Shown here: in pieces, positions 3,261 to 64,000 of the stretch
How the letters are laid out: each line of letters opens with the position of its first letter
How positions within the stretch are numbered: position 1 is the stretch's first letter
NCBI GenBank assembly: GCA_964454975.1
Contig: CAYVVD010000007.1
Span: 63,074-127,073 of the forward strand
DNA from: an uncultured Hyphomicrobiales bacterium
GTDB taxonomy: Bacteria; Bacteroidota; Ignavibacteria; Kapaibacteriales; UBA2268
Direction of reading: 5' to 3'
DNA: 64,000 nt
The notes under the pieces: model-generated
What the model was told of the DNA's origin: nothing
The model's input: only the letters and a program-made list of their open reading frames with translations
Database searches by the model: none
Program-made: the position numbers and the translations under genes

Positions 3261-4691
3261 TTGAATTTGACTCAGTTTAATACAAACTCAGATTTTTCAA
3301 TTTTCGCAGGTATTTCCCCGGCATTTCTTGCCAATGCAATCAGCAGGGGCCGTTGGAGGTATGCTCCACACCTGGGTATTATAGACTCCGCATTAAAAGA
3401 ACTAAGCTTCGGCCAAGATAAACGGATAATTATTAACTTGCCGCCACGGCACGGCAAATCAGAGCTTGTATCGAAATACTTTCCATTCTGGTACCTCGGC
3501 AATTTCCCGGATAAAAAAATTATTCTCGCCTCTTATGCAGCAGACTTTGCGGAATATTGGGGAGCTAATGTACGCGAGCTTATCAATGAATGGGGTATGG
3601 GGCTTTATGGCATTTCACTGTCCGGCAGGGCAACGGGGAACCTGGCTTTAGCTGATTACGGCGGAGGAATGATAAGCATGGGAGCAGGCGGCCAAATAAC
3701 AGGAAGGGGCGCCGATTTGATAATAATTGACGATCCTGTTAAAAACGATGCCGAAGCACACAGCGTAACTTATCGGGACAAGCTGTGGGACTGGTTCCGT
3801 TCAACGCTTCTTACAAGGCTCGAGCCCGGAGCTTCTCTGGTATTAATAATGACCCGCTGGCACAATGACGACCTGGCGTCAAGAATACTTAAGCATGATA
3901 TAGAGCACAGATGGGAGCAAATAAAGTTGCCTGCTGTTGCGGGAGAAAATGATATTCTCGGAAGAAAGCCGGGAGATGCGCTCTGGAAGGAGCGCTACAG
4001 CCGTGAAAGCCTTGATTCAATCAAAGAAAGCATTGGCTCGTATTGGTTTTCGGCGTTATACCAGCAGGAGCCGGAAACAGAAAATTACGGAATATTCAGA
4101 AGGGAATATTTCAAATATTTTGATTTGAAGAGAGATTTGATTGATTATGGAGGTATATATCTGCATCCGGATCAGTACAAAATGTTTTCAGTTGTTGATT
4201 TGGCGATCTCTGAAAAGGAAACAGCAGATTTTACAGTTGTGCTTACTTTTGCCTTAGACAGGTACAACAATGCGTATATCCTCGATATTATCCGGGAACG
4301 CGTGAGCGGTACAAGGCACCTTGAACTCCTAATCAGCGTTTACAAAAAGTGGAAGCCACTGAAAATCGGAATAGAGAGCGTTCAATTCCAGAAGTCGCTT
4401 GCCCGGATGGCTCTGGATAGGGGTCTGCCAGTGATAGAATTAATCCCGGACAAGGACAAAGTTTCCCGTGCATTCCCAATTGCGGCTCGAATGGAATCAG
4501 GGAAGGTATTCTTTCCCCGTAACGCACCCTGGCTGGCAAAATTCGAAGAAGAACTGCTGTTATTCCCGGGAGGGAGGCATGACGATCAGGCAGACGCGCT
4601 TGCGTATATAATGTATTTTATCGGGCAGGACTCTGGTTACAATCTTGTATCAGGCAATCCAAAAAACAGGATGCGGGTTGGTCTGACGTAA
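3261..4691 (+). CDS. terL: Phage terminase large subunit (Terminase_6 ATPase + C-terminal nuclease)
   Basis: Walker A IINLPPRHGKS, Walker B LIIIDDP, IMTRWH coupling region, nuclease VDLA and HDDQADAL; uninterrupted 476-aa ORF. Confidence 0.92.
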   Translation: MNLTQFNTNSDFSIFAGISPAFLANAISRGRWRYAPHLGIIDSALKELSFGQDKRIIINLPPRHGKSELVSKYFPFWYLGNFPDKKIILASYAADFAEYWGANVRELINEWGMGLYGISLSGRATGNLALADYGGGMISMGAGGQITGRGADLIIIDDPVKNDAEAHSVTYRDKLWDWFRSTLLTRLEPGASLVLIMTRWHNDDLASRILKHDIEHRWEQIKLPAVAGENDILGRKPGDALWKERYSRESLDSIKESIGSYWFSALYQQEPETENYGIFRREYFKYFDLKRDLIDYGGIYLHPDQYKMFSVVDLAISEKETADFTVVLTFALDRYNNAYILDIIRERVSGTRHLELLISVYKKWKPLKIGIESVQFQKSLARMALDRGLPVIELIPDKDKVSRAFPIAARMESGKVFFPRNAPWLAKFEEELLLFPGGRHDDQADALAYIMYFIGQDSGYNLVSGNPKNRMRVGLT

Positions 4692-5757: not shown

Positions 5758-6240
5758 ATGAAAATTCCTACAGAATTGAAGCACAAGCCGGTAATCGTAT
5801 CAGAAGGTTACGATAAGGTTGACGGCAGGAAGGCGCGAAAGTCAGATGCTAAGGGCTTGTCACTTGGACTGGCGCAGTGGAACGACCGCGGCAACGTGGA
5901 CATCTCCGCCAAAATATGGCGGCATACAGGTGAGAAATGGTCCCGGCAGTCGGAGGAGCTGCCCTTCCACCGTGTGATAGACCTTGCGATATTAATTTGT
6001 AAAGCTAAATATTATTTTCGCGAGCGATACAGGTTTACAGAGAAGGGTTTCCCCGATTTCCCACTGCTGGACAGGATTGGAGTTCAGGGCGGCGCAATGA
6101 ATTTTGCCCTCTGCACAGAAAACGGTCACCTGGATGAGGACCTAAAACTGTTCGACAAATGCCTCCGCAAGGACGACGAGATATTAAGCGAACGCCTCGG
6201 TGTGCTTGCGAAAGTGCTTAAGGAGTTGGAGTTGGTGTAA
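5758..6240 (+). CDS. DUF6530-like protein
   Basis: MKIPTELKHKPVIVSE...SDAKGLSLGLAQWNDRG..DISAK.WR.TGEKWSRQSEELP.HRV.DLAILIC recalled as the conserved DUF6530 signature. Confidence 0.7.
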   Translation: MKIPTELKHKPVIVSEGYDKVDGRKARKSDAKGLSLGLAQWNDRGNVDISAKIWRHTGEKWSRQSEELPFHRVIDLAILICKAKYYFRERYRFTEKGFPDFPLLDRIGVQGGAMNFALCTENGHLDEDLKLFDKCLRKDDEILSERLGVLAKVLKELELV

Positions 6241-9782: not shown

Positions 9783-10469
9783 TTACATCTCAATCATTCT
9801 ATCCAGCAGCTTATAAAGATACTCGTGCATATCATTGGCAAGGTAGCTGTTGGCAATGATTTCGCGGAGGTTCATCACATAAATGTCCTCATTCAGTTCC
9901 ATCAGTCCCTTCTGTGCCATTCTGACAATGTCATCCTGCGGTATTTCTATGTGGAATTGTAAACCGACAGTGTTTCCGAGTACAAATCCCTGGTTGGGAC
10001 AGTTGCCATTTGAAAAGGTGTGGACAGCACCTTCGGGCATGTCAAATGTCTCACCGTGCCAATGGAAAACGGGAATTTCAACAGGAAAGCCGTCAAACAA
10101 TGGGTGTTCATTTTCTTTTTTTACTGGAAAAAAACCTATTTCCTTGAACTCGATTGGATAAACTTTGTTGCCGAGTGCGCTTGCTAACATCTGGGCACCG
10201 AGGCATATTCCGAGTACCGGCCTGCCGCTTGAAATAAATTTACGGATGAACTTTTTCTCTTCCACAAGCCAAGGGAATTTCTCCTCGTCATTTACACTCA
10301 TAAAGCCGCCCATAATAACGAGCATGTCCGGTTCTGTTACGGGAGGAGCTTGCTGATTCTGCCAAAAGTCTGTAGTGCTTAACTTAATGCCACGGCTAAG
10401 GGCCCAGTCAATTATCCTGCCCGGACCCTCGTATTTAATATGCTGAAAAACATGAACGTTTTGGGGCAC
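9783..10469 (-). CDS. Type 1 glutamine amidotransferase (GMP-synthase-like, stand-alone)
   Basis: GG.MSV, LGICLGAQ nucleophile elbow, FHWHGE, GLQFHIE. Confidence 0.9.
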   Translation of the reverse strand: MPQNVHVFQHIKYEGPGRIIDWALSRGIKLSTTDFWQNQQAPPVTEPDMLVIMGGFMSVNDEEKFPWLVEEKKFIRKFISSGRPVLGICLGAQMLASALGNKVYPIEFKEIGFFPVKKENEHPLFDGFPVEIPVFHWHGETFDMPEGAVHTFSNGNCPNQGFVLGNTVGLQFHIEIPQDDIVRMAQKGLMELNEDIYVMNLREIIANSYLANDMHEYLYKLLDRMIEM

Positions 10470-10708
10470 TAATCCTTACCCTTTATCACTTTGATAATGA
10501 ATGACGCCCTGTGCTTTTGAAACTCCGCTTCTATTTCTTTCGAAAGCAGAGCGAAAATCCTGTCATGTTCGCCTTTTATCTGCGTGCTCATCCTGTTTGT
10601 TTCTACTTCGAGTGATTCATCAAAATGAAGCCGGGAAATAAAATCTCTGATTGGTCCTTTGTAGTCCTTAGTAAGAGGATAAAAACTAATTTCTACAAAA
10701 ATTCTCAT
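10469..10708 (-). CDS. YkoF/thiamine-binding protein family
   Basis: EISFYPL...ETNRMSTQIKGE pattern, 79 aa. Confidence 0.65.
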   Translation of the reverse strand: MRIFVEISFYPLTKDYKGPIRDFISRLHFDESLEVETNRMSTQIKGEHDRIFALLSKEIEAEFQKHRASFIIKVIKGKD

Positions 10709-10714
10709 TGTGTT

Positions 10715-19762: not shown

Positions 19763-20584
19763 ATGAATAAAATACTGGCAATACTTTCAAACTTCGGTTA
19801 TTGGGGAATTGAGTTTGTCGGTCCAAAGCTTGCCCTCGAGAAAGCGGGCTACTCAATTGAGATATGCACACCCAGGGGCGAAAGGCCAATTGCATTGCCG
19901 CCCAGCTATGACGTAAATTACTGGGACCCGCCGCTCGGCCTTAATGTTACAACCCCCGAAGATGCCGAAGAGGTAAAAAAAGTTGAAGATAGCGACTTTC
20001 TTAATAACCCGAAAAATCTTTCAGAGTGGTTTCCCGAAAGGCCCTATTTCAGCAAAGATAAATTTCTGAGGGAATTTGAAAAATATTATAACGAACTCGA
20101 AGCTGCGGAGAAAGACCTTGAGCAGTATGATGGGGTATTAATCGTAGGCGGAAGCGGGCCGATACTCGACATGGTGAACAATCAGCGTGTTCATGATGTT
20201 ATTCTCGGCTTCCACAAAGCAGACAAGCCGATTGCTGCTATTTGCTACGGGGTTGCCTGCCTCGCCCAGGCACGTGATTTCAACGAAAGGAAATCTATAA
20301 TCCGTGGCAAGCATGTCACGGGGCACTGTATCGAATATGATTACAAGGACGGAACCGGTTTTGTAGGAACTGATTTGAACATAGGCCCACCGCCATATTG
20401 CCTTGAATATATGCTTACTGATGCTGTTGGTCCTGAAGGCGAGTATCACGGTAATTTCGGCAAGCATATATCAGTCATTGTTGACTACCCGTTTATCACA
20501 GCCCGCTCGCTACAGGGTTCTCATGTATTCGGAGAAAAATTTGTTGATATGCTGGACAAAGGTTTAAGGCGCTATGGCTGGTAG
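19763..20584 (+). CDS. DJ-1/PfpI family protein (paralogue 1)
   Basis: GYWGIEF, IVGGSGP, nucleophile elbow AAICYG; AGGAG ribosome-binding site. Confidence 0.85.
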   Translation: MNKILAILSNFGYWGIEFVGPKLALEKAGYSIEICTPRGERPIALPPSYDVNYWDPPLGLNVTTPEDAEEVKKVEDSDFLNNPKNLSEWFPERPYFSKDKFLREFEKYYNELEAAEKDLEQYDGVLIVGGSGPILDMVNNQRVHDVILGFHKADKPIAAICYGVACLAQARDFNERKSIIRGKHVTGHCIEYDYKDGTGFVGTDLNIGPPPYCLEYMLTDAVGPEGEYHGNFGKHISVIVDYPFITARSLQGSHVFGEKFVDMLDKGLRRYGW

Positions 20585-22280
20585 TACAAACAGATTTAAA
20601 ATAATAGAGCAGTTCCTTGCTAATGGTATGAACAGGATGTTTGGCAACCCCGGCACTGTTGAGCAGGGCTTCCTGGATGCTCTTGCCGATTACCCTGAGA
20701 TGAAGTATATCCTTACATTGCAAGAGTCTGTTGCCGTCCTTACCGCTGACGGATATGCCCGCTCTATGAAAAAAAACACGCTTGTTCAGATTCACAGCAC
20801 ACCGGGGCTTGGTAATTCAATAGGCGCTCTTTACCAGGCGATGCGTGGTCATTCCCCGCTTGTTGTTATCGGTGGCGACGCCGGCATAAGGTATATAAAC
20901 ATGGACGCACAGATGGCCGGCGACCTGGTTAGTATTGCAAAGCCTGTCACGAAGTGGGCATCTATGATTTTGGAACCTCAATCCTGCCTGCGCATGATAA
21001 GACGGGCAATCAAAATAGCAGGGACACCGCCGATGGGGCCGGTCTATCTCTGCCTGCCTATGGATGTCCTTGATGCAGAATGCACTGAAGAAATTTACCC
21101 GGTGGGGATTCCTTCAACTCGAGTCCGGCCGGATAGTATTGCAATAGATAATGCAGCAGACATTCTTCTTTCTGCTGAAAAACCAATGATTTTTGTTGGA
21201 GATGGAGTTGCTTATTCCGGGGCTGTAGAAGAACTAACACAAGTAGCAGATTTACTCGGCGCAGAAGTTTATGGCGTGGACTCCGGTGATGTAAACATGG
21301 ACTGGTCGCATCCATTGTGGCAGGGTGCAACAGGACACATGTTCGGCTACCACAGCCTGCCAATTACCCAAAAAGGCGATGTAAACCTTTTGGTGGGAAC
21401 TTACATGGTTCCGGAAGTATTCCCTGAACTTGGTAGTATCTTTGCCTCTAAAGCAAGAAACATACACATCGACCTAAACGCTTATGAAATAGGCAAGAAC
21501 CACAGGGCTGATATTTCTTTTGTTGCGGATCCTAAATTAACTCTGAAAGCTTTATCTGAAGCACTAAATGCAAAGCGAACAAAGGCATACATTACGACCA
21601 TTGAAAGCAGGGTTTCAGAATTATCAAATGCTAAAGAACAAAGTATTGCAGAAGACAAAGAAGCAGATGATAGAATAGCTGATAATGTTCCGATGGATTT
21701 CTCTGTGTTTGCGAAAGAATTGGCGAAAAACCTCCCCGCTGACACTATAATATTTGATGAAGCGCTGACAAGCTCACCTGCTCTGACACGATACATTGTA
21801 CCTAAAAAGGAGGGCTCTTTCTTCCAGACTCGTGGCGGCTCTCTTGGAGTTGGGATCCCAGGGGCAATCGGTTTGAAGGTAGCCAACCCGGACAATACTG
21901 TAATCGGATTTACAGGCGATGGCGGTTCAATGTACACAATACAGGCACTCTGGACTGCTGCCAGGCACAACATTGATGCTAAGTTTGTAATCTGCAACAA
22001 CGGTAGTTACAGGCTGCTCCAGCTAAACATTGATGCTTACTGGCGTGAAAGGAATTTCGGAATACATGCTCATCCGCTTCCATTTGATTTATCCGAACCG
22101 CCTGTTGATTTCGCCGGCCTTGCGGAGGCAATGGGCGTTAAAGCTCTGAAAGTGGAAAAACCTGAAGAAGTTGGCACTGCAATCCGGAAAATGCTGGATC
22201 ACAAGGGGCCTTTTTTAATTGATGTAATTCTCGAAGGGGATAAACATTCGGGGGATGTTGCCCTTCATTGCGGACAATAA
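20574..22280 (+). CDS. Thiamine-diphosphate-dependent enzyme (benzoylformate decarboxylase/acetolactate synthase-like)
   Basis: MFGNPGTVE, LQESVA..ADGYAR, ThDP motif GDGGSMY...NN.SY. Confidence 0.92.
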   Translation: MAGSTNRFKIIEQFLANGMNRMFGNPGTVEQGFLDALADYPEMKYILTLQESVAVLTADGYARSMKKNTLVQIHSTPGLGNSIGALYQAMRGHSPLVVIGGDAGIRYINMDAQMAGDLVSIAKPVTKWASMILEPQSCLRMIRRAIKIAGTPPMGPVYLCLPMDVLDAECTEEIYPVGIPSTRVRPDSIAIDNAADILLSAEKPMIFVGDGVAYSGAVEELTQVADLLGAEVYGVDSGDVNMDWSHPLWQGATGHMFGYHSLPITQKGDVNLLVGTYMVPEVFPELGSIFASKARNIHIDLNAYEIGKNHRADISFVADPKLTLKALSEALNAKRTKAYITTIESRVSELSNAKEQSIAEDKEADDRIADNVPMDFSVFAKELAKNLPADTIIFDEALTSSPALTRYIVPKKEGSFFQTRGGSLGVGIPGAIGLKVANPDNTVIGFTGDGGSMYTIQALWTAARHNIDAKFVICNNGSYRLLQLNIDAYWRERNFGIHAHPLPFDLSEPPVDFAGLAEAMGVKALKVEKPEEVGTAIRKMLDHKGPFLIDVILEGDKHSGDVALHCGQ

Positions 22281-22292
22281 CCAGGAAATCAA

Positions 22293-22985
22293 ATGATACA
22301 CCAGTTAATTTTTGCAAATCCAAAACCCGGTATGAGCGTTAAAGAATTCCAGGACTATTGGCTGAACGTTCATGCTGTTAATTTCGCCAGCAAAATAAAG
22401 CAAATCAAGAAGTACAAAATTGATACAGTCTTTCCGGTTGGCGATGAAAAGCCTCTATTTAATGGTATCGCTGAAATCTGGCTTCACGAAGAAGAACAGA
22501 TTGAATCTCTCCGCTCGGATGAATTTCTTAATGGCGCACGCAGGGATGAACCGAACTGGGCTGCGTTCTGGGAAACTATCGGCCTCGACACAGATGCTCA
22601 CGTAATAGTTGACCCGGGTGAGCTGGAAAGAAATGCTTCAGGCGTGAAACTTGTGTTATTTATTAAGCGAAAAGAGGGCATTAGCCTCGGTGATTTCCGA
22701 AGTAAAAGCTTGGGCGAACATGCCGGAAGAATGCAAGCAATCCCCGGTTTGAAGGGCTATTACCAATGCCATGCGAAAGACGGCCTGTATGCTGTGGGTG
22801 AATCGAGGCTGGATTCTATAGAGTTGCTATGGTTTGAGAATGAAAAAGTCTTAGATGCAACAATTGAATCTGACGAATACAAGAGTTACGTGGAAGGAGA
22901 AATAGCCTCGCTTGTTGAGACTAAATGGCTGTTCAGGATGGCATGCAAAGAGCACTGGGTTATCGGACCGGATTTCAGGGATTGA
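22293..22985 (+). CDS. Tandem EthD-domain protein
   Basis: Two repeats: KPGMS..EF.DYW..VHA and RKEGIS...F.....EHA; FNGIAEIW. Confidence 0.8.
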   Translation: MIHQLIFANPKPGMSVKEFQDYWLNVHAVNFASKIKQIKKYKIDTVFPVGDEKPLFNGIAEIWLHEEEQIESLRSDEFLNGARRDEPNWAAFWETIGLDTDAHVIVDPGELERNASGVKLVLFIKRKEGISLGDFRSKSLGEHAGRMQAIPGLKGYYQCHAKDGLYAVGESRLDSIELLWFENEKVLDATIESDEYKSYVEGEIASLVETKWLFRMACKEHWVIGPDFRD

Positions 22986-22986
22986 T

Positions 22987-23406
22987 TTGAGCCTGGCACA
23001 AAACATATTCAGCCTTTCGGCATGCCTCGCAACATCTGATATTGTAGCAAGCATCAAATGGTATTCTGAATTTTTAGGCTGTAAGGTTGAGGAAAGGCAG
23101 GAGTATCCTGATTATGGCTTCAAGCTTGCTTTTATTTCGCTCGGAACAGTACGTTTCGAGTTAATCGAAATTCCGGGTATTGAACCATTCAAAAGGGAAT
23201 CGCCCCCTAATCATGTTAAAACACAGGGTCTGAGCCAGTTAACATTTTATGTTGAGGACATTGATGCTGCCTGGGAAGAGTTATCGTCAAAAGATATTGC
23301 AATAGCCTCGAAACCGCTCGAATATATCGCTCAGGACACAAAATTCAGAGCATTTATGATTCGCGACAACCAGGGTAATTTACTGGAATTCATTAAAAAA
23401 TATTAA
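22987..23406 (+). CDS. VOC / glyoxalase family protein (ORF open from 22912; TTG 22987 is the likely start)
   Basis: SIKWYSEFLG, FELIE, QLTFYVEDID, IRDNQGNLLEF. Confidence 0.85.
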   Translation: MSLAQNIFSLSACLATSDIVASIKWYSEFLGCKVEERQEYPDYGFKLAFISLGTVRFELIEIPGIEPFKRESPPNHVKTQGLSQLTFYVEDIDAAWEELSSKDIAIASKPLEYIAQDTKFRAFMIRDNQGNLLEFIKKY

Positions 23407-23425
23407 GCCTATAATTATTTCAATT

Positions 23426-24469
23426 ATGAAAGAACTCGATAAAAAGTTAATAAACGCTGTTGACATCCAGGATGTTGAAGCTGTTAAAATGCTTCTTGAT
23501 GAAGGCGCTAACCCAAACACCCGCGATACCGGAAGCGGGCTAACTGTGCTGATGATAGCTGCAGGCCGGGGGAATCCGAAATTAGTCCGGCTGCTAATTG
23601 ATAAAGGTGCCGATGTTTTTGCCTGCGACAGCAAAGCAGGGGCAACAGCTTTGCATAAGGCATGCCAGGGCGGCTCTCTGGAAGTGGTGAAAATCCTTGT
23701 TGATAATGGAGCCTTCATTAATGCTGTTGTTGTTTCAACAGGCCATACAGCATTAATTGAAGCGCTGTGGTTCAAGCAGGCAGATATATGCAAGTATCTG
23801 ATTGAGCAGAACGCCGGAATTAATCTGTCCACTCATTATGGTTTTACAATTCTTCAGCATTTTGAATACGCTATGAATGTAAACCAGGTAGGCAGGGAAA
23901 AGCTTCTCGAAGCTGATAAAGCCCTGAAATCCCGCCAAAGCCATGATGCCGGAATGGTAGAAACTCAGAAACTTATGAAGGCAGTTGTTGAGAATAACCT
24001 TAAAGAAGTACAGGCGCTGATATCCGCAGGCGCTGAAATTGATGAACGCTCGCCTGTATTGAACGGATTCAATGATTACCACACGCCATTGCTTGTTGCC
24101 TGCCGCGACGGGCACACAGAAATTGTAAAAGAACTTATAAACGCCGGTGCAGATATAAACGCTGTTGAGCCGACCTTCGGAGCTGTTCCATTGCACAAAG
24201 CTACATATAACGGCAGGGCTGATATTACACAAATTCTGGTTGAACAGGTTGGCATCAACCTCGATTACCAGGGCCCAACCAACGGTTATGCTCCTCTTCA
24301 TGATGCACTTTGGCATGGTTTTGCTGATTGCAGCGTAATTCTTATCAAAGCCGGAGCAAGTCTCGTGCTTAAAGGGCACGACGGCAAAACACCGCTGCAG
24401 ATAGCAACGGAGATGTTTGGGGAAGGACATGAAATTGTAGAATTGATAAGAGAAAAATCAACAAATTAA
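23426..24469 (+). CDS. Ankyrin-repeat protein
   Basis: Multiple repeats, e.g. GLTVLMIAAGRGN, GATALHKACQGG, HTPLLVACRDGH, GAVPLHKATYNG, GYAPLHDALWHG. Confidence 0.95.
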   Translation: MKELDKKLINAVDIQDVEAVKMLLDEGANPNTRDTGSGLTVLMIAAGRGNPKLVRLLIDKGADVFACDSKAGATALHKACQGGSLEVVKILVDNGAFINAVVVSTGHTALIEALWFKQADICKYLIEQNAGINLSTHYGFTILQHFEYAMNVNQVGREKLLEADKALKSRQSHDAGMVETQKLMKAVVENNLKEVQALISAGAEIDERSPVLNGFNDYHTPLLVACRDGHTEIVKELINAGADINAVEPTFGAVPLHKATYNGRADITQILVEQVGINLDYQGPTNGYAPLHDALWHGFADCSVILIKAGASLVLKGHDGKTPLQIATEMFGEGHEIVELIREKSTN

Positions 24470-24479
24470 GGAGATTGAT

Positions 24480-24890
24480 ATGGATGCAAATGAAGTAGCT
24501 CATAAATGGTTTGATGCACTAAAAAGCGGGGACACTGACACAGCAATGAGCCTGCTCGATGAAAATGTTACCTGGATAAACATGGCTCCTGAGCCGGGTG
24601 TCAGCGACGTCTTGCCATGGATTGGCAGTTACCAGGGCCTGGAAAAATTCCTGAAAGCTTTCGGAGTTTACCAGTCAGTTGTTGATGTAAAATTCATCGA
24701 ACCGACAAACCTGATTGTAGAGGGCAACCAGGCATTTGCAATGGTTCATGAGATCGGTGAAGTTAAGCATAATGGCAGGCAGTTCGATATCGAATTCGGG
24801 CTTTTGATGAAAATCGAAAACGGCAAGATTGTCTGGTGGAAATCACTTACCGATTCATCTCATATTGTCGCTGCATGGCTTGGAATGTAA
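24480..24890 (+). CDS. SnoaL-like / NTF2-family protein
   Basis: WFDAL..GD......LLDENVTW, W.G.Y.G, IENGKIVWWK. Confidence 0.85.
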   Translation: MDANEVAHKWFDALKSGDTDTAMSLLDENVTWINMAPEPGVSDVLPWIGSYQGLEKFLKAFGVYQSVVDVKFIEPTNLIVEGNQAFAMVHEIGEVKHNGRQFDIEFGLLMKIENGKIVWWKSLTDSSHIVAAWLGM

Positions 24891-24914
24891 TATTAAATAT
24901 CAAAGGATAAGAAG

Positions 24915-25535
24915 ATGTTTTTTTATAATAAAATGCGCTGGGAACTGAAAGGCATGACTTTCGACCAGCTTTGGGACATAGAAAAAGTTGAAGCTCAAAC
25001 CGGGGTTGAAACGATTGAAGAAGGTATAGTGCCTCATCTCTACAAAGTGGCTTCAGAGCAGTATGTAATTGCAATTGGGGATGCACCTTCCGCGGAAGAA
25101 CTCGATCGCTTTTCTATGGGAAGGCTGCCAATGCATGAATACCTAATGTTCGAAGCTGTATGGCCGCTTGATGAGATTTATACAATAGACCTTGTAAAAT
25201 ATTTCGATAACAGGAGAGAAAAATTTCCTGATAATCCCTCGTTCCTGATGTACATCGAACTGGCATGGAATGATACAGACAGGTATCTCGATCTGAACTG
25301 GGGCAGGATACGTCATTTTGCCCGTGGATTTGAGAGCAACGATACTCAAATCCTCAGCATATACCGTGTCTCCGGTACTCAGAAAATAATAGCAATTGTT
25401 GACTTTGCCGATTCTATGGCAATCAGCCGTTTTGTAGCAAATGAAGTATTTGACGGCTCCAAGACTGATAAGGTCTGGACATTACGAGACTACGTTGGAT
25501 TTGCTGACGATGTTGTTAAACATTACAAAGTTTGA
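24915..25535 (+). CDS. Internally duplicated muconolactone-delta-isomerase-like protein
   Basis: Halves align: LYKVASEQYVIAIGD...RF...VWPL vs IYRVSGTQKIIAIVD...RF...VWTL; MIase-like ferredoxin pattern recognised by eye. Confidence 0.5.
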   Translation: MFFYNKMRWELKGMTFDQLWDIEKVEAQTGVETIEEGIVPHLYKVASEQYVIAIGDAPSAEELDRFSMGRLPMHEYLMFEAVWPLDEIYTIDLVKYFDNRREKFPDNPSFLMYIELAWNDTDRYLDLNWGRIRHFARGFESNDTQILSIYRVSGTQKIIAIVDFADSMAISRFVANEVFDGSKTDKVWTLRDYVGFADDVVKHYKV

Positions 25536-26396
25536 TTGATGGAATCATTTGTAAAAATCCATTCATTTACATCTGACGCCAAGACCTGGTTTGTAAATCT
25601 TTTTGTCGTTGAGGGTAAAGAGGGTGTTGTCCTTGTTGACGGGGCAATGACTATTAGCTTCGCTGAAAAAGTCAGACATTTTATCAGGGATGAATTAAAA
25701 AAGCCAATCCTCGCTGCAGTGCTTACTCACGGCCATCCGGACCATTACTCGGCTGTCGGTGAAATAATAAAAGGATATGATATCCCCTATTATTCACTCC
25801 CGGGGGCAAAAAAACAGGCAATGGAACGCGAAAAGGAAGAGCTTGAAGGGATGCTCCGGGTATTTGGAGATGATTACCCAAAAGAGAGGATTTTTCCTAA
25901 CACAATAATCAGCGATGGCGATTCAATAGAACACGGCGATATTAAAATGACTGTAAGGGACTTTGGCCCGGGCGAATCGGATTCAGATTCCGCCTGGACT
26001 GTTGAAACCCCAGACGAAAATAAAGTGGTAATCGGTGATTTGATTTATAATCACATGCACTGTTTCCTGCTCGACGGCCATCCGGTTGATTGGCTTAAAA
26101 GCATTGAATTGCTTAAATCAAATTACCACGACGGTTCAACTTTTCACCCTTCTCATGGCATATCCTGCGGGCGTGAAATGCTTTACTGGCAGGAATCATA
26201 CCTGAAAATGTTTATCAACTCCGCCTGGGAGATTTTCGGGGATGACCGAACTATGACAGATACAAAACAACAAGCGATACTAAACAGGTTGAAATCATTC
26301 CTTCCAAATGATAACCTGCTATTCCTTGCAGGATTCAGGATCGATGAAACAATCAGTAAAATTTTAGACCAAACAAAAAACCTCGGAGAGAATTAA
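25536..26396 (+). CDS. Metallo-beta-lactamase-fold hydrolase
   Basis: LVDG, THGHPDH (HxHxDH), GDLIY, PSHG. Confidence 0.9.
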   Translation: MMESFVKIHSFTSDAKTWFVNLFVVEGKEGVVLVDGAMTISFAEKVRHFIRDELKKPILAAVLTHGHPDHYSAVGEIIKGYDIPYYSLPGAKKQAMEREKEELEGMLRVFGDDYPKERIFPNTIISDGDSIEHGDIKMTVRDFGPGESDSDSAWTVETPDENKVVIGDLIYNHMHCFLLDGHPVDWLKSIELLKSNYHDGSTFHPSHGISCGREMLYWQESYLKMFINSAWEIFGDDRTMTDTKQQAILNRLKSFLPNDNLLFLAGFRIDETISKILDQTKNLGEN

Positions 26397-27152
26397 ATGG
26401 GATTCAAGTTACTTGTAATAGCTTCAAACTACGGGCTTTGGGCAGAAGAACTTCAGGCACCGTGGGATGCACTCAAAAAGGCAGGACACGAACTCCGGCT
26501 TGCAACATTTCTAGGCAAAACACCTCTACCATTTAAACTTAGCATGGATACCGAATTTATTGATCCGATGATTAATCAACCCATGAACCCGAAGGAAGTG
26601 GTTGACAGGGTAAACGAAATCCTCGACAATGGTGAATGGGACAACCCGATAAAGACTGCAGACGCTAAAATGATGGACTATGACCATCTTGTTATTGTAG
26701 GCGGACCCGGAGCTGCTCTGGACATTACTGGAAATATGTTCGTGCATAAGCTTATATTTGATGCCTACAAAAGCGGCAAAACTATTGGTACATTATGCTA
26801 TGCAGTGGGAGCACTTGCATTTACACGCGACCCTGATAATGGCAACAAGAGCATCATCTATGGTAAAAACATTGTTGCGCACCCGCATGCGTGGGATTTT
26901 GACGTAGATGTAGTTTACGATGTGGAGCGTGCTACTGAGGAAAATCCAAATATTAAAATGCGCACTGCAGGATTTGTCTTCCCGCTTCAGTATATGGTAC
27001 AGGATGCCGTAGGCCCGGATGGCAAAGTGATTTTCGATTTGAAAGCTAACCGCTTTGCCCCATGTTCAAATTACGATGCACCATTTGTTACGGCGCAATC
27101 AGTAGAATCATCCGCAATATTCGGCGAAAGGCTTGTCGAAGTATTCAGTTAA
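26397..27152 (+). CDS. DJ-1/PfpI family protein (paralogue 2)
   Basis: GLWAEEL, IVGGPGA, elbow TLCYA; similar layout to 19763 paralogue. Confidence 0.82.
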   Translation: MGFKLLVIASNYGLWAEELQAPWDALKKAGHELRLATFLGKTPLPFKLSMDTEFIDPMINQPMNPKEVVDRVNEILDNGEWDNPIKTADAKMMDYDHLVIVGGPGAALDITGNMFVHKLIFDAYKSGKTIGTLCYAVGALAFTRDPDNGNKSIIYGKNIVAHPHAWDFDVDVVYDVERATEENPNIKMRTAGFVFPLQYMVQDAVGPDGKVIFDLKANRFAPCSNYDAPFVTAQSVESSAIFGERLVEVFS

Positions 27153-27161
27153 GGAGGTTCA

Positions 27162-27740
27162 ATGAAATTAACCGGTAAAAAAGTCGGACTGCTTATAGAA
27201 AGTGATTTTTATGAACCGGAGATAGCTTACTACCAGCACCGGTTCATGGAAGAGGAAGTCGATCTCCGATTGCTCACAAGGCTTTGGGGACAGGAATCAA
27301 TTACTTTCACCGGGCATGAAAACAGGTTGAACACAATAACAGCGAATGAATCATTTGAAAATATTTCCGATGATGGGTTAGCGACTTATGAAGCAATAAT
27401 TGTCCCTTCCGGTATGGTTTCCGACAGGTTACGCTATACTGAAGACATTAACAAGATTCCTCCTGCAACAGAATTCCTGGGTCTTGCATTTGCTAATAAG
27501 AGTATAATCAAAGGGATAATATGTCATGGTTTGTGGCTTTGTGCTCCGAATACGGATTTGGTTAAAGGTCGCAATCTCGTTTGTCACAACAACCTGATTG
27601 GCGATGCAAAAGCATACGGCGCAAATTATGTAGATGAAGACTATGTTGTTGACGGCGATCTGGTTACTGCAAGAACCGGCGGCCATTGTCATCTGCTTGC
27701 GAGAACAATCATCGGGTTGATGTATGAAAAAGCGGGGTGA
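27162..27740 (+). CDS. DJ-1/PfpI family protein (paralogue 3, PfpI-like)
   Basis: ESDFYEPE, IICHG elbow, VVDGDLVTAR. Confidence 0.88.
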   Translation: MKLTGKKVGLLIESDFYEPEIAYYQHRFMEEEVDLRLLTRLWGQESITFTGHENRLNTITANESFENISDDGLATYEAIIVPSGMVSDRLRYTEDINKIPPATEFLGLAFANKSIIKGIICHGLWLCAPNTDLVKGRNLVCHNNLIGDAKAYGANYVDEDYVVDGDLVTARTGGHCHLLARTIIGLMYEKAG

Positions 27741-37941: not shown

Positions 37942-38877
37942 ATGCCTTTTGCAGTAGGCGGAAATGCCAGAATACGAACAAACATATCGGCTGAAAATGC
38001 CTACAATGCGCTTGATGTATCCAACCGTGATATATCGCTCAGGCAACTAAGGCTTTCGACGGGCAAGAGAATAAACAATGCCGCGGATGATGTTGCCGGT
38101 TATATTACTTCCAGGGCGCTCCAGGCAAGAAACGGTGCATTAAAAGCAGCTCTCAGAGCTGTCGGCGATGCCCAGAATTCATCCTATATCATCATGGACT
38201 CTCTTGATAATATAGGTACACTAATAAATGAAATTAAGGAAGCCACAGCAACCGCTGCATCGGGTGCAATGGGAACAGATGAGATGATTGCTCTTGCAAA
38301 AGCAGCCTACAGGATGGTAGAACAGATACAGACTGTAGTTGATTCAACGGTATTCGGCGGAAGGCAGCTTCTTGACGGTACTTTTTCAGCAGACTTTGTT
38401 ATTGCAACTGATGCGACAAACAACCTGCTGACATTGTCACTCGATATGACAACCGGAAATGCCGACTTTAATGTTGAAAACGGTGACTTTAATATTAATT
38501 CTTTGAATATTTCAAGTTTTGGTGGTATAACAGGACTCGACTTGAGGGAGTTCAACAATGTAAGCTCTACAAATCTGGGTATCTTTGCTGATACTATGAT
38601 GACAGTTACCCTCACGAGCCTTGCCGATGCTATACAGAACGTAAACAAAGTTGCCTCTTACGTTGGCGGTATTGTAAACAGGCTTACTTCGCAGGAAGAC
38701 CTTCTTAAGAGCCAGGTTACAAACTATAATTCGGCAATTTCGAGAATCGAAGATGCCGACGTTGCGATGGAACAGCTTCAGCTTGTTAAATCGCAGTTCC
38801 TGCAGAACGCTTCGCTGGTTTCGCTGGCACAGGCCAATCAGAACCCGCAGGCATTCTTGCAGCTGATACAGGGATAA
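37942..38877 (+). CDS. fliC: Flagellin (copy 1)
   Basis: RIRTN..A.NA, LRLSTGKRINNAADD.AG, FGGRQLLDG, SRIEDADVA.E, SL..AQANQ.P; GGAGG ribosome-binding site. Confidence 0.9.
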   Translation: MPFAVGGNARIRTNISAENAYNALDVSNRDISLRQLRLSTGKRINNAADDVAGYITSRALQARNGALKAALRAVGDAQNSSYIIMDSLDNIGTLINEIKEATATAASGAMGTDEMIALAKAAYRMVEQIQTVVDSTVFGGRQLLDGTFSADFVIATDATNNLLTLSLDMTTGNADFNVENGDFNINSLNISSFGGITGLDLREFNNVSSTNLGIFADTMMTVTLTSLADAIQNVNKVASYVGGIVNRLTSQEDLLKSQVTNYNSAISRIEDADVAMEQLQLVKSQFLQNASLVSLAQANQNPQAFLQLIQG

Positions 38878-38906
38878 TTTAGAATAATGATTGGAAAGAG
38901 GTTGCC

Positions 38907-39842
38907 ATGCCATTTGCAACAGGCGGATCATCAAGGATTAGGACTAATATACCGGCAGAAAATGCCTATAATTCTCTCGAAATATCATCAAGAGATATTT
39001 CTCTCAGGCAGTTAAGGCTTTCGACCGGCAAAAGAATAAACAGCGCTGCCGATGATGTGGCAGGATACATCACTGCCCGGGCGCTCCAGGCAAGGAACGG
39101 GGCTCTCAAAGCTGCGCTCAAAACAATAGGGGATGCCCAGAATGTGTCCAACATTTCACAGGATGCGCTCGCCAACATCAACGACCTTATTAACCTAATT
39201 AGAGAATCTACTGCCACCGCTGCATCCGGCGCAATGGGAACAGATGAAAAAGTAGCTCTTTCTAAAGCAGCCTACAGGATGGCTCAGCAGATACAAACGG
39301 TTGTTGATTCGACAGTTTTTGGCGGACAACAGCTTATGGATGGTAATTTTAGCGAGAATTTCTATATAGCAACAAATGCCCAGAACAGCCTTATTACACT
39401 AAGCATTGACCTAACTACCGACAATGCAGATTTTAATGTTGAAAGCAATAATTTTGATGTGCATTCCTTAGCTTCTTCAAATTTTGCCGGTGTTACAGGA
39501 TTGGATTTAACTGAGTTGAATGATATTAACGCAACTGACTTGGGTATATTTGCCAGTTCTGTTATAGGTATAACGCTTACCAGCCTTGCAGAAGCGCTTA
39601 ACAATGTTAATAAAGTAGCCTCATTCCTCGGTGGAATTTCAAACAGACTGGATTCGCAGGAAGACATTCTGAAGAGCCAAATAACAAATTATAACGCTGC
39701 AATCTCGAGGATTGAAGATGCCGATGTTGCGATTGAGCAGCTCAGCCTGATTAAATCTCAGTTCCTGCAACAGGCCTCACTTGTTTCGCTATCCCAGGCG
39801 AACCAGAATCCAAATGCATTCTTGCAGTTAATAAGCCAATAA
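38907..39842 (+). CDS. fliC: Flagellin (copy 2)
   Basis: Same terminal motifs; ungapped 311-aa alignment to copy 1, 227/311 identical by hand count. Confidence 0.9.
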   Translation: MPFATGGSSRIRTNIPAENAYNSLEISSRDISLRQLRLSTGKRINSAADDVAGYITARALQARNGALKAALKTIGDAQNVSNISQDALANINDLINLIRESTATAASGAMGTDEKVALSKAAYRMAQQIQTVVDSTVFGGQQLMDGNFSENFYIATNAQNSLITLSIDLTTDNADFNVESNNFDVHSLASSNFAGVTGLDLTELNDINATDLGIFASSVIGITLTSLAEALNNVNKVASFLGGISNRLDSQEDILKSQITNYNAAISRIEDADVAIEQLSLIKSQFLQQASLVSLSQANQNPNAFLQLISQ

Positions 39843-60999: not shown

Positions 61000-61009
61000 G
61001 GGGGCAGAA

Positions 61010-62614
61010 ATGAAAAGACGTGACTTTGTTAAGACATCGGCTGCCGTTGGTGCAGGTGCAATGCTCGCCCCCTATATCGCAAAAGGGGTGCCGTACGAAA
61101 AACTTCCTATGGAAACACTCGGTTTCCTCGAAGCGAATACAATACTGATTATAGTCGAACTATTCGGCGGGAACGACGGGCTAAACACTATCATCCCGCT
61201 GCACATGGAGGACAAGTACAAGGAGCTGCGCCCGAGAATTAACATATCAAGGGCTGACGCACGCAGGTTCGCAGATTCAGATGTTTATTTCCATCCCGCA
61301 ATGGTTGACAGTGTTCACAGGGACGGAATGCTTGGCCTTTTTGAGCGTGGCAATCTTGCCGTCGTTCAGAATGTCGGCTATGAGGATATGACTCTTTCGC
61401 ACTTCCTCTCGCAGCAGATATGGCTGAGCGGAATAAACGTAAAAGACCCACGAGACCCGCGCCTATTCGAGGGCTGGCTCGGCCGTTACTTCCTGAGTAA
61501 ACTGCCGGATTACCCGTCTACGATACCGGAACACCCGCTTGCAATTGCCCTCGACGGAACCGTTCCACTGCTGTTTAAGACAGAATTGGGGCACATGGCA
61601 ATCTCGCTTCTTGACCCCGAGAAGTTCTACGAGCAGGGGGGAGGGTTAAGTCCTAAAGACCCGATAATGCAGGGTGATTCTCTTTATAATACCGAATATA
61701 ATTTTGTGCATACGATAGCTCGCCAGTCGCAGGAATACTCCGAAGCTATTTATAATGCTTACCAGGCAGGCAAGGACAAAATTCAGGTTAATTACACCTC
61801 CGGTTCAGAATTTGCGCCTACTCTTTCTGATAAATTCAAACTTATATCGCAATTGATTGCAGGCGGGCTCAAGACAAAGGTTTATTACATACGCCAGAGC
61901 AACTATGATTCTCATGCCCAGCAGATGAATGATCCCCATAGCGGCCAGCACCCGACGCTGCTGCGAGACTTGTCGAGAGGTATATCCGAGTTCATGGATG
62001 ACGCCATCAAGCAGGGCTGGTCTGACAGGGTTGCAGGCATGACTATCTCCGAGTTCGGCAGGAGAGTCTATGACAATGGCTCGCGCGGCTCAGACCACGG
62101 CACGGCGTCAATGGGATTTGTATTCGCTGCCGACGACTATGTGAACGGCGCTACATACGGCCAGCCGCCGGACCTCGAAGACCTTGACAGCGGTAACCTC
62201 CGCACTGAATACGACTTCCGCCGTGTTTACTCGAATGTACTTAACTCATGGTTCGGAGCAACACAGGATGAAATAGATACTATATTTGGTGATTCATTCC
62301 TGCCGCTGCCTATACTGGCGAATCGAGTGCTTAGCGTCGAGAACCCGCTTGCGGGCTACACAGGCAGGGAGTTGAATGTTTACCCGAACCCGTCAAGGGG
62401 CATGGCAACACTCCGCTTCGAGCTAAAAATGCCGTCAAAGGTAAAAATCGGCATATACAATCATTCAGGGCAGAGAGTGGCATTGCTCGAATCGGGATAC
62501 CTGGGTGCAGGTTACCACGAGTACCCTGTTCACTTAGGACAAAGTGGCACTTATGTTATTAACGTAATAGCCGGCAACAAAACCTACGCTGCACGGCTTA
62601 ATGTAGTTATGTAA
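61010..62614 (+). CDS. DUF1501 family protein with Tat signal and T9SS CTD
   Basis: MKRRDFVK Tat motif; LFGGNDGLN, SHF, YDSH, SEFGRR..DNG.RG.DHG; CTD VYPNPS...SGTYVI. Confidence 0.92.
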   Translation: MKRRDFVKTSAAVGAGAMLAPYIAKGVPYEKLPMETLGFLEANTILIIVELFGGNDGLNTIIPLHMEDKYKELRPRINISRADARRFADSDVYFHPAMVDSVHRDGMLGLFERGNLAVVQNVGYEDMTLSHFLSQQIWLSGINVKDPRDPRLFEGWLGRYFLSKLPDYPSTIPEHPLAIALDGTVPLLFKTELGHMAISLLDPEKFYEQGGGLSPKDPIMQGDSLYNTEYNFVHTIARQSQEYSEAIYNAYQAGKDKIQVNYTSGSEFAPTLSDKFKLISQLIAGGLKTKVYYIRQSNYDSHAQQMNDPHSGQHPTLLRDLSRGISEFMDDAIKQGWSDRVAGMTISEFGRRVYDNGSRGSDHGTASMGFVFAADDYVNGATYGQPPDLEDLDSGNLRTEYDFRRVYSNVLNSWFGATQDEIDTIFGDSFLPLPILANRVLSVENPLAGYTGRELNVYPNPSRGMATLRFELKMPSKVKIGIYNHSGQRVALLESGYLGAGYHEYPVHLGQSGTYVINVIAGNKTYAARLNVVM

Positions 62615-62750
62615 AGCGGTTGTTTGTGTCTCCATAAGCATCATTTCCGTTGTGGAGGCCGTGCAAAAATATAATTACTGGTTGTTCTTCCCCACTCCGG
62701 AGAGGAGGGAGAAAAGGTATAAACGTTTATATCCCAAGCAATTAACAGCG

Positions 62751-62783
62751 CCGCTCTCATTTGGAGAAGAGTCGGGAGTGAGG
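62751..62783. repeat. Degenerate REP-like element (CTCTC..TTGGAGA.G.G..GG.GTGAGG type)
   Basis: Resembles the CCTCTCC/GGAGAGG...GGGTGAGG intergenic repeat family; degenerate. Confidence 0.35.
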
Positions 62784-62844
62784 TAATTAATCACAGAAAA
62801 TTTATTAAACATAATACGAAATCGAGAATTCGATATTAATAAAC

Positions 62845-62866
62845 AGGCTGCTCCGGCAGCCTTTTT
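62845..62866 (+). terminator. Rho-independent terminator
   Basis: AGGCTGC-TCCG-GCAGCCT followed by TTTT. Confidence 0.75.
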
Positions 62867-62944
62867 AATGAAAATAAGATTTCTACTCCACCTTCACAAA
62901 GCGTCTTTGGTAAACTTGCTTGTCGGTTCTGATTCCTTTATTAT

Positions 62945-62970
62945 AGATGCCTGCTTTCGCAGGAACGACA
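62945..62970. repeat. REP-like element AGATGCCTGCTTTCGCAGGAACGACA
   Basis: CCTGC-TTTC-GCAGG hairpin in the context of the GTCATTCC.GCGAAAGC.GGAATC repeat type (reverse strand). Confidence 0.5.
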
Positions 62971-63133
62971 TTCTGTCGGACTGTTCGGCACTTCGAAGAT
63001 CGTACGGCGAACTATGCATTGGGTACTATCCCAACATTTTGGTTAAAAAAAATCCATAAATTATAAAATCAATTAAACGCTTTGTATTTTTGATACTTGC
63101 TCTTTTAACACGGACTTAACTTTACGCCTGGAC

Positions 63134-64000
63134 ATGGATATGAGCGAAAATTTCTACGACTTTGAATTCAAGGCATTTGACGAGATGACTCCGGAAGATT
63201 TTGCCCGCGTAGGCTTTAAATCCGGCCTTGAAGTACACCAGCAATTATTGACCGACAGGAAGCTGTTCTGCCGCTGCCCTGCCGGGAAATATACCCATGA
63301 ATATGATGCGGAAATTCTGCGCCACATGCGCCCGACTCTCTCCGAACTCGGCGAGTACGATGGTACGGCGCTCATGGAATTCAAAACCAAAAAGAATATT
63401 ATATACAGGATACACCACGAGTCGGTCTGTACTTATGAAATGGACGACACACCTCCATTCATGATAAATGACCAGGCCCTGGACATTGCCCTGGAAATCG
63501 GCCTGCTCCAGGATTCTACAATCGTGGATGAACTCCACATTGCCCGCAAGCAGTACCTGGACGGCTCTATCCCTACCGGCTTCCAGCGGACTGCAATCGT
63601 GAGCGTGGGCGGGCGGATTCCCTATAAGGACAGGTATATCAATATGATTCAGATGTCCATAGAGGAAGATTCCTGCCGAGAGGAAAGCGATATAGGCCAC
63701 GACCGTATTTATATAACCGACCGGCTTGGTATGCCGCTCATCGAAACCGTTACGCATCCTGAAATGAAAACTCCGGTGGAAGTTGCCGAGGTATGCGAAA
63801 TTATACGCAGGTTGTCACGTAGCACCGGCAAAGTGCGCACTGGAATCGGAGCAGGAAGAGAGGACGTTAACGTAAGCGTAGAAGGTGGCACAAGGGTTGA
63901 AATCAAAGGTGTGCCCCGCATCAAGGAAATCCCCCTGCTTACTTATAACGAGGCAATGCGCCAGTGGAATCTGCTCAGGCTCCGCGAGGAACTAAAAAGG
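63134..64000 (+). CDS. gatE: Glu-tRNA(Gln) amidotransferase subunit E, archaeal type; partial, runs off right edge (ATG 63134 or 63140)
   Basis: Hand-translated stop-free frame: GLEVHQQL, LFCRCP, RHMRPTLSELGEYD, RKQYLDGSIPTGFQRTA, EEDSCR, DRLGMPLIE, STGKVRTGIG..REDVNVSV.GG.RVEIKGV; missing from ORF track because no stop codon. Confidence 0.88.
   Translation, partial: MDMSENFYDFEFKAFDEMTPEDFARVGFKSGLEVHQQLLTDRKLFCRCPAGKYTHEYDAEILRHMRPTLSELGEYDGTALMEFKTKKNIIYRIHHESVCTYEMDDTPPFMINDQALDIALEIGLLQDSTIVDELHIARKQYLDGSIPTGFQRTAIVSVGGRIPYKDRYINMIQMSIEEDSCREESDIGHDRIYITDRLGMPLIETVTHPEMKTPVEVAEVCEIIRRLSRSTGKVRTGIGAGREDVNVSVEGGTRVEIKGVPRIKEIPLLTYNEAMRQWNLLRLREELKR

Follow-up and report, generated by a model that had tools for sequence, protein, structure and literature searches.

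The glutamyl-tRNA(Gln) amidotransferase GatDE is stated in reviews and primary papers up to 2022 to be exclusive to archaea (PMC2811023, PMC8007984, PMC9499178), and on that exclusivity have been built arguments about the co-evolution of GatDE with archaeal tRNA(Gln), about the lack of transfer of GlnRS into archaea, and about the gene content of LUCA, the last universal common ancestor. The locus described here raises the question of whether GatE, one of the two subunits, is also encoded by a bacterium and, if so, where the gene came from. The locus lies at the end of a 64,000-nucleotide stretch of contig CAYVVD010000007.1 (the window), where a reading frame with an ATG at position 63134 and a second in-frame ATG at 63140 continues for 289 codons without a stop and is still open at the window end. 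A preliminary description of this DNA had assigned the frame to GatE rather than to GatB, the paralogous subunit of bacterial GatCAB, and had proposed an inter-domain transfer. Comparison with profiles, structures and full-length relatives makes it probable that the gene is a functional bacterial gatE, the first gene of a gatE-gatD operon encoding a GatDE amidotransferase of Asgard archaeal descent.

Identity of the truncated gene and its full-length relatives

The fragment amounts to about 45% of the gene, on its 5' side, and codes for the N-terminal portion of the cradle, the catalytic domain of GatB/GatE (Pfam GatB_N, E 1.6e-41). It scored 301.7 bits on the NCBIfam GatE model PRK04028 (E 9.5e-90, model positions 5-272 of 630), which falls below the whole-protein cut-off only because the window end cuts the protein, and 268.1 bits on the GatE model TIGR00134, as against 103 bits on the GatB model TIGR00133, far below the cut-off of 314.8; overall it matches GatE profiles better than GatB profiles by some 200 bits. 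Its best matches in the Protein Data Bank (PDB) were the GatE chains 2d6f_C (7.8e-61) and 1zq1_C (3.6e-53), with the best GatB chain at 7.8e-15. The GatB signatures CPVCLG.PG, RKNYFYPD and LRCDANVS, which the preliminary description had reported as absent, were likewise not found in the fragment by a regular-expression search. The motifs DGSIPTGFQRT, DRLGMPLIE and STGKVRTGIGAGREDVNVSVEGGTRVEIKGV (residues 230-260) are present as that description gave them, but the first motif in its list reads R..RPT and not R.RPT; its RPTxSELG part is conserved between the fragment, 2d6f_C and 1zq1_C in the alignment. In trees the fragment groups with GatE, apart from four GatB outgroups, and the GatE of its best relative (locus L001) scored only 38-44 bits against GatB. 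By every sequence-level criterion that gave a clear answer the window gene is GatE and not GatB, and the earlier call is borne out by profiles, PDB chains and full-length relatives alike. That the gene had been missed by the open reading frame (ORF) track is explained by the ORF program, which drops frames running past an end.

A scan of one genome per species returned at least 599 matching stretches, at least 587 of them encoding a relative. The best 80 relatives listed are 74-87% identical to the fragment, and every one is labelled as a bacterium, for the most part as Ignavibacteria, Kapa(i)bacteria, Melioribacteraceae, Chlorobiota, Aminicenantes or Bacteroidota; relatives occur on a 5.46-Mb chromosome and on contigs longer than 1 Mb. 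Among the carriers are the Kapabacteria chromosome OY762428.1 and the contigs CAXXGR010000002.1 and CAVQOH010000002.1. The DNA of more than 70 loci encodes a full-length bacterial GatE of 635-665 amino acids (aa). With the GatE family models NF003107 and TIGR00134 and their curated equivalog cut-offs, the GatE proteins of relatives that are 87% identical over the part in the window scored 532, 530 and 523 bits on one model (cut-off 456) and 476, 461 and 439 bits on the second (cut-off 319.55). Their GatB_N match extends over residues 26-460 on only 271 model positions, so that an inserted segment of about 125 aa must interrupt it; there is also a hint of a GAD domain, and GatB_Yqey follows at residues 502-636. 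These proteins align end to end with the GatE of Pyrococcus abyssi (1zq1_C, 2.6e-101) and of Methanothermobacter thermautotrophicus. Neither a grouping with GatB, nor a truncated or pseudogenised gene, nor a chimeric contig, all named in the preliminary description as grounds for abandoning the call, was found in the 70 or more relatives.

The preliminary description had also advised looking for an adjacent gatD, and in the relatives this gene is directly 3' of gatE in 73-75 of 80 bacterial loci, and wherever a bacterial locus is long enough to take in the two genes, gatE stands before gatD. The gap between the two lies within ±20 nucleotides in 60 of 75 loci, the commonest values being -1, +1 and -4, which suggests translational coupling. 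The GatD of the relatives (460-470 aa; PRK04183, 510-514 bits against a cut-off of 310) has a GatD_N domain followed by the N and C domains of asparaginase, keeps the motifs GTGGTIASR and HGTDTM, and aligns end to end with 1zq1_A (4e-118). Around the pair no further gene is conserved, and the remaining families that recur are shadow ORFs on the antisense strand. The remainder of gatE and a gatD would presumably follow beyond the window end in this particular genome also. In a metagenome-assembled genome (MAG) labelled as Deltaproteobacteria, gatE and gatD are convergent (L179:2782-6200). Bacterial-type gatE was found neither on plasmids, where matches were limited to a single haloarchaeal GatE and some genes for GatB, nor on viral contigs.

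The catalytic core was taken to be those columns of the alignment in which four full-length GatB proteins do not differ and 137 archaeal GatE proteins show an invariance of at least 97%; there are 24 of them. All 24 are kept in the bacterial clade of 103 members, and the window fragment has all 22 that it covers (G31, E33, H35, K43, R138, K139, Q151, G160, E177, R197, L202, E204, G239, R242, D244, N246, S248, G252, E256, K258, E273 and Q277), including every universal residue within VNVSVEGGTRVEIKGV; the GLEVH columns, which are among the 24, are kept in 98-99% of the bacterial clade (Table 1). Comparison of the fragment with L001 gave 0.107 for the proportion of differences at nonsynonymous sites (pN) and 0.76, a saturated value, for that at synonymous sites (pS), indicating strong purifying selection, and GatD has a mean identity of 85% across 70 bacterial loci. 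To judge from sequence, retention of the core together with this constraint is the mark of a working enzyme.

The system to which the bacterial pair is most readily compared is archaeal GatDE (M. thermautotrophicus, 2D6F; P. abyssi, 1ZQ1), which has the same two subunits and the same domain architecture: in GatE, a cradle into which an AspRS-like domain is inserted, then a helical domain and the YqeY tail; in GatD, GatD_N and an asparaginase fold. Archaeal and bacterial proteins align end to end (E 1e-92 to 1e-118) with full-length identities of 28-39% for GatE and about 47% for GatD, and the core residues are all kept. They differ in the domain of life of the host, in a loop that reads KVRTGIGAARED instead of KVKRGLGTIRQD, in a tail without G..A.G, and in the replacement of H.DE by H.DS. 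The enzyme to be expected in a bacterium is GatCAB, whose GatB (Staphylococcus aureus, 3IP4) has a paralogous cradle with the same catalytic residues, and which carries out the same overall reaction, likewise as a tRNA-dependent kinase/amidotransferase with a separate glutaminase feeding it. However, GatB shows only about 22% identity and lacks the insertion domain that the full-length relatives carry, and it is partnered by the amidase GatA and by GatC, whereas the partner of GatE is the asparaginase-type GatD.

If the bacterial enzyme works as its archaeal counterpart does (PMC2330236), GatD, an asparaginase-like glutaminase, would free ammonia from glutamine or asparagine; a non-discriminating GluRS would make Glu-tRNA(Gln), the presumed substrate by analogy, whose acceptor end would be bound by the GatE cradle; and GatE would phosphorylate the glutamyl side chain with ATP and then amidate it to give Gln-tRNA(Gln).

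Some entries depart from the standard arrangement. The proteins listed in a protein search were all of at most 502 aa, with unrelated C-termini, and a tail-less bacterial GatE was considered; this was rejected, the 70 or more loci encoding 635-665 aa with a tail. The short protein entries (about 480-500 aa) are contig-end fragments or frameshifted long-read calls, and the odd C-termini of entries P0014 and P0017 are attributable to frameshifts in assemblies that, to judge by how their contigs are named, come from long-read assemblers. In L049, L074 and L079, gatE (around 10000-11900) is broken into two or three ORFs by frameshifts. Locus L180:7001-9832 (logan DRR333436_18812) encodes a 943-aa protein with GatB_N, GatD_N and both asparaginase domains, which falls within the bacterial clade; its make-up suggests a GatE-GatD fusion too short to contain the YqeY tail, but it is known from a single contig and may be an artefact of assembly or deletion.

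Origin of the bacterial gatE-gatD pair and its host

An exhaustive search among 1.84 billion cluster representatives turned up a graded series of bacterial-type proteins running from 75% down to about 49% identity, followed by a Heimdallarchaeota protein (52%, 278 bits) and then by ordinary archaeal GatE at 40-45%. Heimdallarchaeota-type GatDE (for example TET29438.1; L161, L166-L173) is the closest non-bacterial relative for both subunits: against L001, Heimdallarchaeota GatE scored 435-472 bits and other archaea 254-386, and Heimdallarchaeota GatD, about 463 aa long as in the bacterial clade, scored 487-510 bits and others 323-418. It was found in eight Heimdallarchaeota genomes, on contigs with the archaeal gene order S13-S4-S11. 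It differs from the bacterial type in that gatD and gatE do not form an operon, and in that the archaeal loop and other positions invariant in GatE are kept. The two genes are divergent at L161:5939-9488, as at all the Heimdallarchaeota loci.

Trees were constructed by neighbour-joining from MAFFT L-INS-i alignments with Kimura or gamma distances and 100-200 bootstraps; the GatE trees were left unrooted or were given four full-length GatB outgroups, and the GatD tree was rooted with asparaginases. The bacterial clade was recovered in 99-100% of bootstraps in the unrooted GatE trees, 93-100% in the GatB-rooted trees and 200/200 for GatD. Counted in replicates, its support came to 193-200 of 200 for GatE. 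It was joined by the Heimdallarchaeota in 87-94%, 43-60% and 159/200, respectively, and then by a group of Thor-, Odin- and Hodarchaeales sequences in 80-94%, 15-57% and 82/200. In the rooted GatD tree the bacteria-plus-Heimdallarchaeota group falls inside a grade of Hodarchaeales, Thor, Odin and Hermod sequences. The phylogeny of GatB and GatE that the preliminary description had called for thus gives a monophyletic bacterial clade with a Heimdallarchaeota clade as its sister, and its proposal of inter-domain transfer is supported, both trees nesting the bacterial clade inside Asgard sequences.

Gene order tells the same story. Abutting genes in the order gatE then gatD are found also on Thor, Odin and Hodarchaeales contigs (L182-L184), where they abut or overlap as in the bacteria; this is the next-closest group in the GatE tree, although its similarity is no higher than that of other archaea (262-360 bits) and its genomic contexts are archaeal. 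The reverse order, gatD then gatE, is found in Methanobacteriales, Methanocellales, Bathyarchaeota, Hermodarchaeota and Woesearchaeota, and in many methanogens the genes are unlinked. The possibility that the inverted order is a bacterial invention was rejected, since Thor, Odin and Hodarchaeales show it too. With the GatE tree, the GatD tree and the gene order in agreement, the simplest reading of the sequences is that a gatE-gatD operon passed once, long ago, from an Asgard archaeon into bacteria. The operon would have entered bacteria once, already in the order gatE then gatD, from an archaeon nearest to the Heimdallarchaeota clade, and would then have spread and diversified in bacteria of the Fibrobacteres-Chlorobi-Bacteroidetes (FCB) group and others, a Kapaibacterium/Ignavibacteria-like host inheriting it along with its housekeeping genes. 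Cradle domains are 65-85% identical between MAGs assigned to different phyla, which suggests later spread among bacteria. Deep members of the bacterial clade adjoin genes for Mur ligases, Lnt, YkuD and PilZ, and are therefore really bacterial. Thus gatED appears to be an old single acquisition, present in hundreds of bacterial species and not the oddity of one organism.

That the window itself comes from a bacterium, as the preliminary description had held, is borne out by the proteins encoded in the same 64 kb: two bacterial flagellins, KdsB, an extracytoplasmic function (ECF) sigma factor, YchF, OmpA-family proteins, GlgX, TrkAH, a bacterial PheS and five proteins with sorting tails of the type IX secretion system (T9SS); a tRNA-His is encoded as well. 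The best matches of PheS (72%) and of GatE (87%) are in the same MAG, JAJRTW01, and the next PheS relatives are in Kapaibacterium/Ignavibacteria MAGs; the host is a Kapaibacterium/Ignavibacteria-like lineage. Many MAGs entitled 'uncultured Hyphomicrobiales', 'Eubacteriales' or 'Chromatiales' carry gatED and PheS of this same type (L002, L004, L005, L008 and others for gatED; L186 and L192 for PheS); those record titles look wrong and are unfit for taxonomy.

The dictum that bacteria use GatCAB or GlnRS, repeated in the preliminary description, stands in the literature (the three papers cited at the outset) but not in the genomes. Annotation pipelines already name these bacterial proteins GatE and GatD, although no description of a bacterial GatDE was found in the literature searched. 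The novelty lies in the domain of the host and in the large and distinct bacterial clade, which is visible in databases and apparently has not been analysed. Its existence strips the enzyme of its status as an 'archaeal signature', and adds a well-supported case of Asgard-to-bacteria transfer of a translation-linked operon. Pipelines for genome quality and taxonomy use gatD and gatE models as markers of archaea, and where they do, bacterial copies could be misread as archaeal contamination.

tRNA-reading elements and the weighing of alternatives

Archaeal GatDE reads the A1-U72 pair and the D-loop of tRNA(Gln), and bacterial GatCAB reads U1-A72 by means of a 3-10 turn in GatB, at the position of which GatE has a short, conserved, positively charged loop beside pair 1:72 (PMC2811023); bacterial tRNA(Gln) normally has U1-A72 (PMC2330236). 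This first-base-pair loop is KVKRGLGTIRQD in archaea, Heimdallarchaeota included, KVRTGIGAARED in 70 bacterial loci and KVRTGIGAGRED in the window, with an intermediate form, kVRRGiGAaRQD, in deep bacterial representatives. In the window an Arg invariant in archaea is replaced by Thr236 and a Gln by Glu243, and 5-6 of the 12 positions depart from the archaeal consensus. The loop is GatE-like in length, two residues shorter than in GatB and without the 3-10 turn insertion. The tail of GatE carries a motif, GxxAxGx, implicated in the rejection of Asp-tRNA(Asn) (PMC2811023). A strict G..A.G is found in 35/121 ordinary archaeal GatE, 3/7 from other Asgard archaea and 5/9 from Heimdallarchaeota, so that it is no strict criterion of the family. 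In the insertion domain of the bacterial clade, the motif H.DE has become H.DS. Judged from the alignments, then, the chemistry appears conserved and the tRNA-reading surfaces shifted. The changed elements fit the differing route of tRNA(Gln) recognition at which the preliminary description had hinted, without proving it, and they may represent adaptation to bacterial tRNA(Gln). The clade would be a natural experiment in which an amidotransferase adapts to a foreign set of tRNA identity elements, with the altered loop as a concrete site for mutation.

Several observations weigh against a GatDE of Asgard descent that works on Glu-tRNA(Gln) in these bacteria. Only 289 of about 640 codons are within the window, and gatD and the tRNA-binding tail lie beyond it; all the trees are neighbour-joining trees built from distances, and the Heimdallarchaeota lose support as sister, down to the moderate 43-60% given above, when the distant GatB outgroup is included; and the taxonomic labels of MAGs are unreliable, some reading 'Hyphomicrobiales' and two archaeal contigs being binned as bacteria. 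In the bacterial clade the first-base-pair loop is altered (Arg to Thr, Gln to Glu), G..A.G is absent from the tail in 70/70 bacterial loci and 32/33 deep representatives, and no domain is less conserved than the tail, with 24% identity inside the clade, so the range of substrates could differ. Neither the window nor 81 gatED loci nor 80 PheS loci (about 1.8 Mb) yielded a tRNA-Gln gene; gatCAB, glnS, gltX, asnS and aspS were absent from the window, and gatCAB, glnS and gltX from the sequence of the related loci, about 1.8 Mb and a small fraction of the genomes.

Some of these points fit a reading in which the same enzyme does a broader job, its recognition re-tuned, for example, to the U1-A72 pair common to bacterial tRNA(Gln) and tRNA(Asn). 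The clade-specific loop substitutions affect positions with an invariance of at least 90% in archaea, Heimdallarchaeota included, the tail shows little conservation, and the absence of GatB and GatA genes from the 1.8 Mb of carriers and relatives adds a very weak pointer. We nevertheless consider this unlikely, since the AspRS-like insertion, thought to clash sterically with non-discriminating AspRS (PMC2330236), is retained, and the rarity of strict G..A.G in ordinary archaeal GatE makes its loss weak evidence. Doubtful too, if with slightly better prospects, is the wider proposal that bacteria of the FCB group (Ignavibacteria/Kapabacteria and others), of the Planctomycetes-Verrucomicrobia-Chlamydiae (PVC) group, Acidobacteriota and Desulfobacterota-like bacteria decode Gln, and possibly Asn, with an Asgard-derived GatDE re-tuned to U1-A72 that has displaced GatCAB and/or GlnRS; if true, this would be a domain-crossing swap of a core translation enzyme together with a switch in a tRNA identity rule. 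The altered tRNA-binding elements and divergent tail might instead reflect recruitment of a GatE-like kinase/amidotransferase outside translation, for amidation of another acyl carrier or a metabolite, and the apparent fusion L180, with no tail, could be cited in the same sense. This is highly improbable: the insertion, helical and YqeY domains are kept in essentially all members, equivalog scores exceed the cut-offs, no conserved neighbours hint at a pathway, and the extreme conservation is typical of translation components.

Transfer from an Asgard archaeon must also be set against vertical descent from a GatDE present in LUCA, as proposed by Sheppard and Söll (quoted in PMC9499178), with loss from most bacteria. 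The clade is indeed deep (some 50 clusters at the 50% identity level, full-length identities to the FCB loci going down to about 41%) and is found in several phyla, and a first tree, with one partial GatB fragment as outgroup, placed the root inside the bacterial radiation. That root was rejected as an artefact of very short internal branches. The four full-length GatB sequences and a better alignment move it into the archaea; all archaea as a clade sister to the bacteria then receive 0-2% of bootstraps, the bacterial clade nests in Asgard sequences, and the asparaginase-rooted GatD tree gives the same nesting. With a gene order common specifically to Thor, Odin and Hodarchaeales, and a cross-phylum identity of the cradle that points to later spread, vertical descent is very unlikely. 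Least credible of all is that the gene is dead, or an archaeal piece on a bacterial contig through chimerism or mis-binning. Two circumstances invite the suspicion. Some MAGs with a bacterial label contain archaeal gatDE contigs, probably through mis-binning, as at L092 and L148, and the GC content at third codon positions (GC3) of the gatE fragment, 0.588, is the highest in the window (mean 0.435, standard deviation 0.052). However, GC3 climbs over the last three genes (59389-64000), from 0.52 in a DUF1800 gene through 0.55 in a DUF1501/T9SS gene to 0.59 in gatE, and because the two upstream bacterial genes are likewise high there is no compositional junction at gatE. The sequence moreover is not of archaeal type but belongs to a separate clade with 96-100% support, members of which are found on long bacterial contigs beside the Mur ligase, Lnt, YkuD and PilZ genes and on the 5.46-Mb chromosome; PheS and GatE have their best matches in the same MAG; and there are 289 codons without a stop, with pN much lower than pS.

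The two contigs just mentioned are those of 'Bacteroidaceae bacterium' (L092), with a Methanobrevibacter-like archaeal gatE and gatD just upstream, and of 'Candidatus Thermodesulfobacterium syntrophicum' (L148), with an ordinary archaeal gatE like that of Alkanophaga. Both fall outside the bacterial clade and are probably mis-binned archaeal contigs.

Features of gatE and of the remainder of the window

Table 1. Position of gatE, its motifs and flanking elements, and of other features of the window
Feature	Position	Strand	Basis
gatE, 5' part, codons 1-289 of ~640	63134..64000	+	translation, Pfam, NCBIfam and PDB matches
GLEVH (G31, E33, H35), core residues common to all GatB and GatE	63224..63238	+	alignment columns
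RHMRPTLSELGEYD, residues 63-76, GatE-specific motif	63320..63361	+	regular expression; alignment with 2d6f_C and 1zq1_C
DGSIPTGFQRT, residues 143-153, GatE-type motif with universal Q151	63560..63592	+	regular expression, alignment columns
DRLGMPLIE, residues 196-204, with universal R197, L202, E204	63719..63745	+	regular expression, alignment columns
KVRTGIGAGRED, residues 233-244, short GatE-type loop	63830..63865	+	alignment; role from PMC2811023
VNVSVEGGTRVEIKGV, residues 245-260, R.D.N.S / E.K core motif common with GatB	63866..63913	+	alignment, regular expression
GC-rich terminator-like hairpin with T-runs on both sides	62845..62862		between DUF1501/T9SS gene and gatE
TATTTTTG, match to TAnnTTTG, 42 nt 5' of ATG	63085..63092	+	weak evidence
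170-aa antisense ORF inside gatE	63245..63757	-	recurs in 34 related loci
Terminase large-subunit-like ORF	3261..4691	+	Terminase_6N and Terminase_6C
DUF6530 gene	5758..6240		
Cluster with three DJ-1/PfpI proteins	19763..27740	+	
Two tandem flagellin genes	37942..39842	+	

Between gatE and the DUF1501/T9SS gene upstream, which has its stop at 62614, the hairpin in Table 1 may act as a terminator; three terminator-like sites are found in the region where 0.4 would be expected. The match to TAnnTTTG, the Bacteroidota-type -7 promoter element, is a weak hint of a gatE promoter, the motif not being enriched in the window (70 matches against 63 expected). The antisense ORF inside gatE persists because gatE is conserved; it is a shadow ORF and not a gene.

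At the other end of the window, an isolated terminase-like ORF adjoins pheS, with the DUF6530 gene near it, and the region is possibly a prophage remnant. In three relatives a tRNA-Glu(UUC) gene is located just 3' of pheS (L185:4108-4180, L186:4126-4198 and L187:4094-4168), and one of the three, CAZWXI01, also carries gatED; pheS of the window has no adjoining tRNA gene. In addition to the tandem flagellin genes, the genome is rich in T9SS cargo proteins. The cluster at 19763-27740 encodes, besides its three DJ-1/PfpI proteins, an EthD protein, a glyoxalase, an ankyrin-repeat protein, a thiamine-pyrophosphate enzyme resembling benzoylformate decarboxylase or acetolactate synthase, and proteins of the muconolactone isomerase-like and metallo-beta-lactamase-fold types.

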